A stretch of 64,000 bases of DNA from a phage, in the sequence record PZ445444.1; one strand, 5' to 3'. Under the pieces are notes generated by a model. That model was not told the origin of the DNA. It searched no databases and worked only from the letters and a program-made list of their open reading frames with translations. Shown piece after piece: positions 27,060 to 32,254 of the stretch. The translations under genes and the position numbers were made by a program. Each line of letters opens with the position of its first letter. Positions within the stretch are counted from its first letter, which is position 1.

Positions 27060-27323
27060 ATGAAACGCCTTGATCAGCTCAAATTAGTTCAATATATGGC
27101 TTATCGTGTTCTTGAAGTCCAGAAAGGTAGCAAAAAAGAGGTTTGCGAGAAAGCTTATAAGATCTTCACTCGCAAAAAAGATGATTGGATGTTACGCCAG
27201 ACCAAAAAAGCCGATATCTTGGGGTACCTGGAAGAAGAGATCCGGCTTGAAGAGCAAGAAGAGATCCGCCGCAGTGAGGCAGATTATCAGGCAGCTTGGG
27301 AAAACTGGATGAATAACAAATAA
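27060..27323 (+). CDS. hypothetical protein (87 aa)
   Basis: RBS AAAGAGGAAAAA upstream of ATG. Confidence 0.55.
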   Translation: MKRLDQLKLVQYMAYRVLEVQKGSKKEVCEKAYKIFTRKKDDWMLRQTKKADILGYLEEEIRLEEQEEIRRSEADYQAAWENWMNNK

Positions 27324-27467: not shown

Positions 27468-27887
27468 ATGAACATTAAATCTAATAATCCGGCATATAGC
27501 TTTGATAACGCTTTTTGTCACGGTCCGGCGGCGAAAGGATTCGAAATCGATGGTAAACTAGTTATTGTCAATGTTGACGGGGAAGAGGTTGCAGTATATC
27601 CGGTGGCAGACGTTAAAAGCCGTCTACAATGCCGCATCGATGTTACCGCCTACCAGCTTGATCCGGTCCGGGTAGTTGCCCTGGTCCTGGAAGAAGAAAT
27701 TAAAGCAATGCACCACAGCAACAAGTTTATTGGTGACGCTCAAGATAATATGAAGGTGTGCCGCCATAAAGTTAATGAAGTGCTTAAAGAATATGGCTTT
27801 AAAGATCTGATGATCAAACGTGAGGAAAAATTCCGCTACCGTAACGACCTGGCAAATCGGATTTTTGAAATATACGAATCATTATAA
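27468..27887 (+). CDS. hypothetical protein (139 aa); last gene of the plus-strand block
   Basis: RBS AAGAGG; followed by a strong terminator. Confidence 0.6.
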   Translation: MNIKSNNPAYSFDNAFCHGPAAKGFEIDGKLVIVNVDGEEVAVYPVADVKSRLQCRIDVTAYQLDPVRVVALVLEEEIKAMHHSNKFIGDAQDNMKVCRHKVNEVLKEYGFKDLMIKREEKFRYRNDLANRIFEIYESL

Positions 27888-27905: not shown

Positions 27906-27932
27906 AAGGGGCTTAAAGGCCCCTTTCTTTTT
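27906..27932 (+). terminator. intrinsic terminator closing the plus-strand block
   Basis: aaggggc-ttaaa-ggcccctt followed by tctttttgt. Confidence 0.7.
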
Positions 27933-27939
27933 GTCTGCT

Positions 27940-30350
27940 CTTCTCCTACCATAAACGGCCCTACCTGGCAAGTGGAATAATTGACTAGCCATCAATCCCA
28001 CATACTGTACAAATATACATTGAAAATAACTATTGCATAATTTTTCATTGTGTGGTAGCAGGGCCATTTTTACCCGTTTTCTCTCCCAAAAGTGCACGTA
28101 ATGCCGCTATTGCACAAATTTTAACCTGATGCACATCTCCAATATCTTGTCAACAACTAAAAATCTTTATAAGTCATACACTTACACAGCATCGAAAGCG
28201 TGTTCTACGCGAAAAATAGAGTATAACTATAGCCGCCAGATCTCAGAATTCACGTACGCACGCCATTCTATAGCCTGCAAAGTATTTATTCCAACCACAG
28301 AATAAAGGAATAGTCAATACCTGCATAAAATAATTATTCGTGTAAACTGCATAACATAAATCAGCTCAGGTGTCAACATTTTTCGTAAACAGCCCGAAAT
28401 TATCACGATGAGTTATCATAAACAGAGAAATCTTTAGTCGTCTAATGTTTACTGTACATTACTATACTGACTGGAATCATTAGATGACTAAGAGAAAGAT
28501 AAGAAATAATTAATAATGTAATTGTTTTACCTGTAACAATAAGGCAACTATGCAAACGAATGGCATGGCGCGACGGAGTCGCGACATAATATAAAAGCAG
28601 TAACCATCACCCCCGTGATAGTTTGTCTGCAAACTATTAATCAGATCATAGTTGCCTTGTATTTAGTTAATCATGACATAACAAGCAAGGCAACTATAGA
28701 TCTTATAATAGTTGCCCTGCTTTTATATTATGTCATGCTAATTATAATCAGTGCGATTATTGTCATGTATAATTATTGTCATGCAAACGAATGGCATGGC
28801 TGATTATCGGTGTGTAAACAGTCAATCATGTAAATGGTTAGCATGTGAACAATCAGGAATGTAAACAATCCAGTGTGTAAACTAATAGGTGTGTAAAAGT
28901 GTCATGTTGTGTCAGTTAGGTCACATTATGTCAGACAAGTTTTTCTCCTCTTTGTCAAGTGCTGCATGAAAAATTTACAATCTTGTATGGTAGCATTTTT
29001 GCGGCCCTGTTTACATTCAGGAGTGTATGTATAATCCTTGGTGTGTGGGCGTTTAGACGTCTAGACGGTCAGAAGTCTGCAGGTCAATATCTAATCTATT
29101 GGCTGCTAACTATATCCCCCACAAATAATAAGAAATATAATTGTTATGTGCGTAAACAGTAACCCATGTTATCAATCCCTGTATGTATCGCCAGTGGTGC
29201 GCATAATGGGTATTATGTTAAATTGCCCGTAATGATAACTATTCTCACAATGATAGGTATTCTCATTCACTCCCACAAGATAGGTTGCAAATGTTGTGCC
29301 ATTGTGTGAACGGCCTCACCTATTAATTTGCCTCACTGCCTCGATATTTGAGAATTGTTATAAGAATGAGAATGATTCCCATTTCGTCCGCCTAGCAGCA
29401 CTCCTGTAGGACAAGCACAAAATCGTGGCATAGCTGGACCTGTTCAGATATTTCTGGCTGGCTCTTCAGGTCTGTGTGGGAAAAGCCAACCCCCTCCGGC
29501 GGCGGGGAGGGTGTCAATTAAAAAATTTACGGGGTATATGAAGCGCTCTTCAGGTAAGGCATGTACTATGGGATGAAACCCTCTTCGGGCAATGATATTT
29601 GTGGGTGTGATATTTGCTGGAAAGCCAGATATGACGGGACTCCCGGCGGGGCAGGGGTAGTACAGACAGGGAAAATATGGGGATGTAGTTGGGTGAATTG
29701 ATCGGGCAGGTAGAGTATGGAATATGTTACAAGTATGTTAAATATGGAGGGTGAATATCTGCAGGATTTGTGTGTAAAATCAAAGACTTAAGTAGTGTTG
29801 TGGTATTTTCTATAAATAATTCAAGTTTAATAGGTAATATTTGTCTCTATCCACTTTGTGTGGTAAACAAATTCAAATGAGATTGGTTTACAAGTGTATA
29901 CATAATATACAAATTAAAGATACAAGAAACCCCCCTCCCCCTTCGGCTACCATTCACCTTTTCCTCTGACTGGTACTTAAACACTTATTCAGACTCTTCA
30001 GGTTATCACCCATATACCATATGGCAGTGACTGGTGTCCTCCGGCCCCTCTTTCGTCACCCGTCCGCTTCGCCATGCTAATGCCATAGCCAAATGTTCGG
30101 TTGTTCACCCTGTTCACTCAGGTGTATCTCCATACCCCTTCAAACCGAAGAGAACAGAAAACCCGAATTACTCGGTAAAAGAAAAGAGAAGAACTTAATT
30201 TTATCAGGATAGGCAAGAATGTCAAGGCATGACTGCTCACTAAACAAGCAAACAGTCATGTGTGGGAGGTAAGTGATTGTGGTGGTAGGAAATTTAGTTG
30301 AAAGATGTGTTATAGGTGCTTCCAGCACTTTAGCCTGGCAGCTAATTGTG
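27940..30350. repeat. 2.4 kb AT-rich non-coding region between convergent gene blocks
   Basis: No ORF with an RBS; 20-bp direct repeat atgcaaacgaatggcatggc (28551-28570 and 28781-28800); ggcaactata/tatagttgcc palindromes; six tgtRaac repeats (28810-28900); four ctcttcagg repeats (29460-30650). Confidence 0.6.
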
Positions 30351-30352
30351 TG

Positions 30353-30568
30353 TCAGTCCAGCGGTTCATCCTCTACTTCACTGAAATCAATGTTCATGGT
30401 CTCTTCCCAACCATCGATCTCAGCACAAGAGTGGAGTTCTTTAGGGTTTACTCCCAAAGCCTCAGCAACAGAGTCTATATTTAACACCTCTGGCAGGTAT
30501 GATTCATCGAATTCAAGGTAAATCAGGCCACGAGTGTTGTCAACTCCACCAAATATTTCTATCTTCAT
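30353..30568 (-). CDS. hypothetical small acidic protein (71 aa)
   Basis: Last ORF of the minus-strand block; MKIEI... N-terminus like the paralog families upstream. Confidence 0.5.
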   Translation of the reverse strand: MKIEIFGGVDNTRGLIYLEFDESYLPEVLNIDSVAEALGVNPKELHSCAEIDGWEETMNIDFSEVEDEPLD

Positions 30569-31948: not shown

Positions 31949-32254
31949 TTATTCTACAGAGCGTTTGAACAGAATGTCTGCCTCAGACATGTGCTCAACC
32001 TCTTCTTCAATCTTAGCGCGACGTTTTTCAGCTTCGTAGCGGATATCAAACTCTGTAGCCACCAAAGATTTGATGAATTTAGGAGAATACAGATGATCCT
32101 GCTTCTCAACAAGAATGATATCCTTGATGGCATCTTTCAAATCTTTAATCTGAAGCTGGAGTTCCACCAGTTCTTCAATTGTTTTGCGAAGGCGATCACG
32201 TTCTGCAGTGTCAGAAGGAAGAGAGGTGAACAGTTCAACTTTAGATTTAGCCAT
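31949..32254 (-). CDS. hypothetical coiled-coil protein (101 aa)
   Basis: Charged heptad-like sequence; GGAG upstream of ATG. Confidence 0.55.
   Translation of the reverse strand: MAKSKVELFTSLPSDTAERDRLRKTIEELVELQLQIKDLKDAIKDIILVEKQDHLYSPKFIKSLVATEFDIRYEAEKRRAKIEEEVEHMSEADILFKRSVE

Follow-up and report, generated by a model that had tools for sequence, protein, structure and literature searches.

A dif-type XerC/XerD core site in the predicted direct terminal repeat of an rV5-like Vequintavirus

In phage P1, Cre acting at loxP reportedly cyclises the terminally redundant virion DNA, and T7 is said to carry a terminal repeat with the short-repeat arrays SRL and SRR and to duplicate this repeat by hairpin priming. 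In T7-like phages, variable-number arrays of short repeats stand beside the terminal repeat, which must be duplicated (PMC5923468). Mobile elements of another kind, namely the filamentous, microvirus and double jelly-roll (DJR) phages with an attP of the IMEX type (integrative mobile elements that exploit Xer) and the plasmids with cer or psi, carry a dif-like site and rely on the host XerCD recombinase. E. coli dif itself has been experimentally confirmed as GGTGCGCATAA-TGTATA-TTATGTTAAAT (PMC3025954). Here we analyze a 2.4-kb gene-free region, positions 27940-30350 of a 64,000-nucleotide stretch of a lytic E. coli myovirus (record PZ445444.1; this whole stretch is called the window throughout). 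With a probability that we would put at about 0.6, it is the concatemer-junction or genome-end region of a Vequintavirus, at whose dif-type site host XerCD would join the two copies of a direct terminal repeat (DTR).

In GenBank, 121 phage records match the 2.5 kb around the region at 87-96% identity. Every one of them belongs to the genus Vequintavirus, and the phage of the window is an rV5-like member of that genus. An earlier note on this DNA, made from its letters, had found so long a non-coding stretch unusual for a compact phage genome, a description that does not suit myoviruses of ~137 kb. The rV5 genome paper already shows the stretch as a box, in grey and marked "non-coding", that separates gene 163 from gene 164; it noted a switch in GC skew there and could not place an origin (PMC3606486). 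The depositors' records leave it essentially without annotation. That it is free of genes and lies between convergent blocks was correctly seen in the earlier note: the left block, on the plus strand, ends at 27887 and the right block, on the minus strand, at 30353, and no open reading frame (ORF) between them is credible because all are of at most 71 aa and relatives carry 1-3 nt indels. Conservation was profiled by aligning the window with 19 relatives, and five other genera of the Vequintavirinae were used for comparison across genera. The profile over the region is a mosaic of invariant, drifting and hypervariable intervals.

Both 11-bp arms of the phage site are identical to those of E. 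coli dif (22 of 22 positions, whether against the published dif or the chromosomal locus L024), and by this identity together with its 6-bp centre, within the 6-8 bp of such core sites, the element is classed as a dif-type XerC/XerD core site. It shares the 28-bp layout of dif and, like dif, lies where convergent blocks and a GC-skew switch meet, and it is the sole copy in the window, 262 bp from the left end of the DTR. All 19 relatives aligned have exact arms: 0 of the 22 arm columns vary, against a background of 23% (P=0.003), and the flanks do vary. The centre is TGGGTA here, TAGGTA in rV5, and 6 bp long in all other genera examined; compared with the host TGTATA, the outer 2+2 bp agree and the middle two differ. 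Two further differences from dif are that the phage site is without polarity of FtsK-orienting polar sequences (KOPS) and that it stands in the terminal repeat of a lytic phage, which would place two direct copies in each virion DNA. When the 431-bp segment around the site was compared with 5,426 complete E. coli genomes, 5274 gave one match each, only at the dif locus and over ~46 nt; the host thus supplies dif, one per genome in these 5274. No integrated phage copy was found in the 5,426 genomes, since no match ran past ~46 nt. Among 72,556 plasmids the matches were confined to a 30-40 nt core and showed no similarity to the accessory sequences of cer or psi. A cer/psi-like accessory sequence and captured chromosomal flanks were both rejected as candidates, given that similarity to plasmids and chromosomes ends at ~30-46 nt.

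The DTR was assigned through relatives. Because the edges of the DTR of Hena1 (Henunavirus), annotated as 519 bp, resemble 28931-28958 and 29383-29393 of the window, and because the records of relatives break at 28934 and 29392, a DTR of 459 bp was predicted. The record of phage Gotham agrees with the prediction: its repeat_region features at 1-459 and 136567-137025 are identical copies that map exactly to 28934-29392 at 95.9% identity, and the record also breaks at 29392. The first position of the YN3 record corresponds to 29392 and its last to 28934, and 29392 is also where the bov10K2 and bov25_3 records begin. In KPP-1 (Mydovirus) a DTR of 514 bp at 116,316-116,829 was derived from twofold read coverage and from a T7-type call by PhageTerm (PMC9862379), and this interval converts to the matching one in Ro1. 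The layouts of Hena1 and KPP-1 are homologous to that of the window, and the boundary motifs, compared with Hena1, Ro1/KPP-1, 4MG and an Av-05-like contig, are common to five genera (left, ...GCTA|AACAC..TTTTCT..yTGTCAAG; right, ...GTCCGyC|TArC). By its ~96% homology to relatives, then, 28934-29392 is the predicted DTR of the virion chromosome. It has both sequence features of a T7-type repeat, namely copies at both ends (in relatives, and here by homology) and a non-coding sequence with flanking short-repeat arrays; no ORF lies within it, and it is moderately conserved. Of the functions that the earlier note had offered for the region, a packaging or terminus site is the one that gained support, from Gotham's annotated end repeats, the record ends of YN3 and bov10K2, and the layout and motifs of Hena1 and KPP-1. 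The note had rightly seen the repeats and had missed the two most informative features, the DTR boundaries at 28934 and 29392 and the dif-type site at 29196-29223. For a few members (Gotham, Hena1, KPP-1 and DP) annotations or publications already give a DTR; for rV5-like phages it is not generally recognised.

When the phage collection was searched with the E. coli dif locus, further genera of the Vequintavirinae proved to carry dif-type sites. The site of 4MG (Seunavirus), CR3 (Certrevirus) and Ro1 (Mydovirus) stands in the same type of gap, where a plus block meets a minus block, and in the same orientation; in Hena1 it is inside the annotated DTR at both ends; in KPP-1 the dif-type segment is 116,456-116,616, within the published DTR; and in phage DP and the Av-05-like contig it has the same place and orientation. 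Across genera the XerD arm is invariant, the XerC arm carries 0-2 changes (for example AGTGCGTATAA in Ro1 and CR3) and the spacer is always 6 bp, with centres GGTGTA, CGTGTA, CGTGTT or TGGGTA and never the host's TGTATA. The distance from the left end is 262-288 nt in Vequintavirus, Henunavirus and Mydovirus. The dif-type site is the only significantly similar DNA across genera in the whole 2.4 kb, as would be expected if the constraint stems from the specificity of host XerCD and not from the phage. The homologous gap in other genera was in fact reached through this site instead of through synteny. A wider proposal, that the subfamily Vequintavirinae carries a mimic of host dif in its terminal repeats, that XerCD, possibly with FtsK or a phage activator, circularises or concatemerises the genomes, and that the centre is compatible with itself and incompatible with the chromosome, is more tentative, and we would place it somewhat short of even odds. 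Two IMG/VR contigs show a different arrangement (L027, 154,976 bp, at 1-520; L035, 261,806 bp, at 960-1560), with paired dif-type sites ~100 bp apart, each beside an inverted XerD arm and near clusters of four DnaA boxes (TGTGGATAA). This layout of ori plus dif is plasmid-like, and another kind of element than the Vequintavirinae case.

The presence of a near-perfect dif copy in the terminal repeat suggests that a lytic phage group uses host XerCD to join its own ends. Under this proposal the flanking arrays and the palindrome would serve terminase recognition, cutting and duplication of the DTR, as has been proposed for packaging of the T7 type, and host XerCD would bind the dif-type site and recombine the two DTR copies. 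Recombination within one injected genome would give a circle; between genomes it would yield a concatemer, joined head to tail with one DTR per junction. Neither route would depend on homologous recombination, as with Cre/loxP on P1 DNA. The likeness to P1 is that a recombination site in the terminal redundancy would circularise the genome through its end copies; the differences are that P1 has its own recombinase, packages by the headful mechanism and carries two lox copies in only some virions, whereas here the recombinase would be host XerCD and two sites would be present in every virion. With the T7-type junction the region shares a short, non-coding, exact repeat, abutting variable-number arrays and a palindrome just upstream of the right-end copy. 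In contrast to T7, which is not known to have a Xer site, the phage of the window is a 137-kb myovirus that uses host RNA polymerase and has other repeat sequences, and its processing could be like that of T7 by analogy. Since Xer strand exchange depends on homology of the central region (PMC5357621), the non-host centre would prevent recombination with chromosomal dif.

Several points weigh against this proposal. The physical ends of the window phage itself are predicted through 96% homology to relatives, and the right-boundary motif was not found in CR3. Position is the only ground for the putative roles of the palindrome, the arrays, the promoters and the block that is ultra-conserved. Recombination of the dif type normally requires FtsK at the division septum. 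As to an activator of the phage's own, the 87-aa ORF at 27060-27323 (plus strand) was considered as a source of FtsK-gamma activity and rejected, having no FtsK_gamma or other significant Pfam match, and no phage-encoded Xer activator was found. Guidance to the site by KOPS was likewise rejected, with four GGGNAGGG words pointing toward the site and four away, a polarity below that of control G-rich words. In two papers, PhageTerm analysis led to Vequintaviruses being described as packaged by the headful or as circularly permuted (PMC8407724, PMC13211470), and the Certrevirus phages CB7 and PhiTE have been reported as permuted. Separately, the records of bov10K2 and bov25_3 (MT884008.2 and MT884011.2), published as "circularly permuted" on the basis of PhageTerm, nevertheless open exactly at 29392, and a short DTR may have been overlooked in these calls. 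The APCEc02, naswa, nom and nomine records give the ORF at 27060-27323 the name "DNA translocase FtsK", which seems to be a propagated annotation error because it lacks an FtsK-gamma or significant Pfam match.

The exploitation of Xer sites by virulent tailed phages is not described in the literature that we searched, which covers filamentous, microvirus and DJR phages, the TLC satellite, genomic islands and plasmids; this search was limited and a prior description is possible. If the proposal is true, lytic Caudoviricetes would for the first time be seen to use Xer, and a major group of therapeutic phages would have a new host dependency, rV5-like phages being in wide use against E. coli O157 and multidrug-resistant E. 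coli. The dif mimic predicts dependency on XerC, XerD and perhaps FtsK, which could affect host range, routes to resistance and growth in non-dividing cells. A conserved site in lytic myoviruses whose arms are perfect and whose centre is not that of the host would amount to a new way of using Xer and to a natural experiment on insulation by the central region, and a dif-type site would be a built-in recombination handle for engineering these phages. The result would also account for the "non-coding" box that has been open since the 2013 rV5 paper, and it gives predicted genome ends for more than 120 deposited Vequintavirus genomes, most of whose records were opened arbitrarily and some of which were called circularly permuted. 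The features of the region are collected in Table 1.

Table 1. Features in and beside the gene-free region, in window coordinates; variable columns and unit numbers refer to the alignment with relatives
Feature	Position	Strand	Remarks
Intrinsic terminator closing the left gene block	27906-27925	+	Hairpin AAGGGGCTTAAAGGCCCCTT, then T-run; also annotated in the Alma and Murica records
AT-rich spacer	27940-28539		179/600 columns variable; pi about 0.09-0.10, above flanking genes; no conserved ORF
Nested palindrome	28540-28735		Hairpin/cruciform potential ~150 bp; 20/196 columns variable
20-bp direct repeat, copy 1, ATGCAAACGAATGGCATGGC	28550-28569	+	ATGC-N9-GCAT dyad, operator-like; invariant
20-bp direct repeat, copy 2	28781-28800	+	Exact match to copy 1
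yGTrAAyA array ("iterons")	28806-28897	+	Period 15-16 bp; 1-8 units
TGTCA units	28898-28933	+	~10-11 bp spacing; 3-7 units; reach the left DTR edge
Predicted DTR, 459 bp	28934-29392	+	Left end GACAAGTTTTTCTCC..., right end ...CATTTCGTCCGCC; 106/459 columns variable; basis: Gotham, YN3, bov10K2 and bov25_3 records and boundary motifs
Predicted sigma-70-like promoter, end-proximal, facing into the genome	28952-28981	+	TTGTCA-18-TACAAT, 10/12 consensus positions; invariant
dif-type Xer site GGTGCGCATAA-TGGGTA-TTATGTTAAAT	29196-29223	+	XerC arm 29196-29206, centre 29207-29212, XerD arm 29213-29223
Two tandem 18-bp boxes AATGATAacTATTCTCA	29233-29268	+	naswa, Alma and magaca records annotate a repeat_region here
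Indel hot spot of ...CTCCTGTAGG units	29393-29420		Starts exactly at the right DTR edge (alignment)
Two CTCTTCAGG motifs	29462-29554	+	Copies at 29462 and 29546; between them GC hairpin 29492-29511, minus-strand terminator-like
Most conserved block	29900-30270	-	31/371 columns variable against 52/216 in the adjacent gene

An alternate explanation for the left half is an iteron-type replication origin, bound by an initiator and perhaps transcriptionally activated from the adjacent promoter. Such an origin would be compatible with a genome-end function, and we consider it unlikely. The earlier note had counted six iterons at 11-15 bp spacing; the array is real, although it consists of five yGTrAAy units and one degenerate unit at 28813-28897 and has a longer period (Table 1). 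The GTGAACA iterons may resemble the type I repeats of P4. An origin is favored by the strong enrichment and periodicity of the iteron core GTRAACA (10 of the 25 copies in the window fall within 3.8% of it, p about 1e-8), by the palindrome, which is taken as invariant, by the cumulative GC skew, which peaks in the region, and by 60-mers with a GC content of 0.22 at 28470 and 28718, although AT-rich stretches of this kind, the lowest 1% of the window, are generic. On the other side, none of the 34 DnaA boxes of the window lies in the region, where GATC is depleted and forms no cluster, so that both were rejected as origin marks; there is no recognisable adjacent initiator gene, and the eight flanking ORFs have no Pfam match above threshold; and the iteron number is down to one unit in some viable relatives. 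The skew switch is confounded by gene orientation, which it tracks at all four switch points of rV5 (PMC3606486). Furthermore, the left boundary of the DTR is exactly where the iteron and TGTCA arrays stop, in keeping with a role in packaging. The suggestion of an origin in the earlier note has therefore found no specific support.

The elements of this left flank have counterparts in other genera. The palindrome lies ~200-390 bp upstream of the left DTR edge and is bracketed by the 20-bp direct repeat. The palindromic boxes GGCAACTAT reported in the earlier note are present in four copies (28543+, 28648-, 28689+ and 28708-), where 0.44 would be expected across the whole 64 kb, and its cgcgac-gga-gtcgcg hairpin is found at 28570-28584. 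The palindrome also holds a perfect 18-bp inverted repeat (28583-28600 with 28717-28734) and a side hairpin at 28602-28623, and it folds with z-scores of -7.7 as plus-strand RNA, -6.8 as minus-strand RNA and -8.3 as DNA; being symmetric on both strands, it points to an element that acts at the DNA level. A 33-nt insertion in two relatives sits in its apical loop (28679), and Hena1, 4MG, Ro1 and CR3 have analogous perfect inverted repeats of 18-22 bp, 72-204 nt apart, in the same relative place. The 20-bp direct repeat claimed in the earlier note is exact, with a chance expectation of 0, except that its first copy starts at 28550 and not at 28551. The spacing between its copies ranges from 213 to 339 bp among relatives, a similar pair in Ro1 (ATGCGAACAAATCGCAT, with the ATGC-N9-GCAT dyad) flanks that phage's own inverted repeat, and as an exact pattern the repeat matched only two contigs in IMG/VR. 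Between the palindrome and the second copy, 28736-28780 is an insertion hot spot at which relatives carry small hairpin-containing cassettes, such as CACCCGAAGGGGTGACCAAAGGTCACC. The iterons and TGTCA units together (28801-28933) are hypervariable, with 118 of 133 columns variable, and GTAAACTGTCA units also occur near the DTR edges of 4MG and Hena1. To the left of all these elements, the spacer at 27940-28539 shows the variation of a sequence that drifts near-neutrally.

It could also be argued that the region encodes one or more non-coding RNAs, for example a minus-strand RNA of ~270 nt that would start from a promoter at 30225->30198 and run across the conserved block, with the CTCTTCAGG motifs as RNA signals; we regard this as quite unlikely. 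The block at 29900-30270 is more conserved than the neighboring genes and contains that promoter, a strong one on the minus strand (TTGACA-16-TGnTAAAAT), a small hairpin at 30163-30175 and a poly-C tract at 29933-29947, whose length changes are its sole indels. The promoter is probably real because, in the most distant relative (L004), its spacer has diverged and both of its hexamers remain, and it probably drives a transcript. Terminator-like hairpins for the minus strand, at 30175-30163 and 29511-29492, also favor an RNA, and the pairing of the hairpin at 29492-29511 is kept through sequence changes in relatives. The poly-C/poly-G tract (GGGGGAGGGGGG on the minus strand) differs in length by 1-3 nt among relatives and, in the predicted fold, is paired to the 5′ end, rich in pyrimidines, of the putative minus-strand RNA. 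However, the folding of the conserved block is no better than that of shuffled sequence (z = -1.4 and -0.3), and a large structured RNA in 29440-29700 or 29915-30192 was rejected, with z-scores of only -0.25 to -1.9; overall, the folding scores that bear on this explanation are just -0.3 to -1.9. Rfam gave no match at the gathering threshold in the whole window and, at E<=5 in the region, a single spurious long non-coding RNA match; no tRNAs were found. Variation is too low for covariation testing, and the block has no counterpart in other genera. A deeper alignment for covariation was sought through synteny with the gene at 31949-32254, a route that failed because its homologues in Seunavirus, Mydovirus and Certrevirus lie inside co-directional blocks with no adjoining gap. 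The cluster of non-coding RNAs that the earlier note had offered is thus not borne out.

That note had also listed four CTCTTCAGG repeats, each followed by a GC hairpin. Four clustered copies exist, at 29462, 29546, 29994 and 30641, but the fourth is outside the region and a clear GC hairpin follows only some of them. The window has three more copies away from this cluster, and these are Pro-Glu-Glu codons read in frame; the genome-wide enrichment of the motif is therefore partly coding bias, and a genome-wide regulatory motif was rejected on this ground. Two other candidates were dropped: CUGANGA as a hammerhead core, since the Rfam search gave no ribozyme, and an 84-bp insertion with target duplication of CTCTTCAGG at 29450-29540, which was a gap-column artefact of the diversity profile.

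A role of the dif-type site in the maintenance of a plasmid-like carrier state, through multimer resolution, or as an attachment site of the IMEX type at host dif, appears improbable to us. The known users of sites of this sort are plasmids and IMEXs, and the record of one E. coli isolate's "plasmid" (CP057073.1, circular, 137,565 bp) is a complete Vequintavirus genome. Nevertheless, none of the 5,426 complete E. coli genomes holds an integrated copy, the plasmid collection shows no similarity to cer or psi accessory sequences, and the phages are described as strictly lytic. IMEX elements, which integrate at host dif and share central-region homology with it on at least the exchanged side, typically have a degenerate XerD arm or a longer centre, and the perfect arms and mismatched centre of the phage site appear to be the opposite of known IMEX attP. 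In contrast to the phage site, cer and psi need ~180 bp of accessory sequence beside the XerC arm for the binding of ArgR/ArcA and PepA, and the cer centre has 8 bp where the phage has 6; the carrier here is, moreover, a virulent tailed phage. A carrier state or IMEX would also leave the place of the site inside the DTR unexplained. The deposited "plasmid" is pRHB39-C03_2 of a cattle-faeces E. coli isolate (L073), with 94.8% identity at window positions 28990-29410 and the same gene order, and the record may stem from a carrier state or pseudolysogeny, or else from a culture contaminated with phage DNA. Finally, the view that there are no fixed ends, with headful packaging from a pac site and a 459-bp "repeat" that is a convention of assembly or annotation, is the least probable of all: PhageTerm did call bov10K2 and BpE1AUH circularly permuted or headful, yet independent records (Gotham, YN3 and the bov phages, the last starting exactly at 29392 though called permuted) break at the same two nucleotides, these nucleotides carry motifs conserved at the Hena1 DTR edges, and the coverage-supported DTR of KPP-1 converts to the matching interval of Ro1.

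Within the DTR, the predicted end-proximal promoter belongs to a yTGTCAAG...TACAAA arrangement, which in Ro1, 4MG and Hena1 stands equally far from the left end. The tandem 18-bp boxes at 29233-29268 make up one palindromic set with the TGAGAAT boxes, in inverted orientation, at 29347-29384, and related GAATGATTCTCAT boxes are found within the DTR region of CR3 (seven copies) and Ro1. Palindromic boxes of the GAATGAT-TCTCAT type recur in the terminal-repeat region of several genera (for example at L076 2891-3492 and L077 3170-3311). Some of the DTR boxes may resemble the Fur-box consensus.

Beside the predicted genome-end region, the last ORF of the left block (27468-27887, plus strand) corresponds to rV5 gp159, carries the label "Rel homology domain" in the Murica record and is missing in six of the 19 relatives, the pattern of an accessory gene. 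On the other side, a 101-aa protein (31949-32254, minus strand) shows 100% conservation within Vequintavirus, and some records name it "transcriptional regulator" or "dsDNA-binding protein"; it has homologues at 42-58% in Seunavirus, Mydovirus and Certrevirus, and its sole Pfam signal is a sub-threshold match to a GapR-like DNA-binding domain (E = 0.04). About 19 chicken-derived records of "Campylobacter phage" (MG0656xx, marked UNVERIFIED) show 89-95% identity over the region to this E. coli Vequintavirus, and their "Campylobacter" host is probably misattributed.

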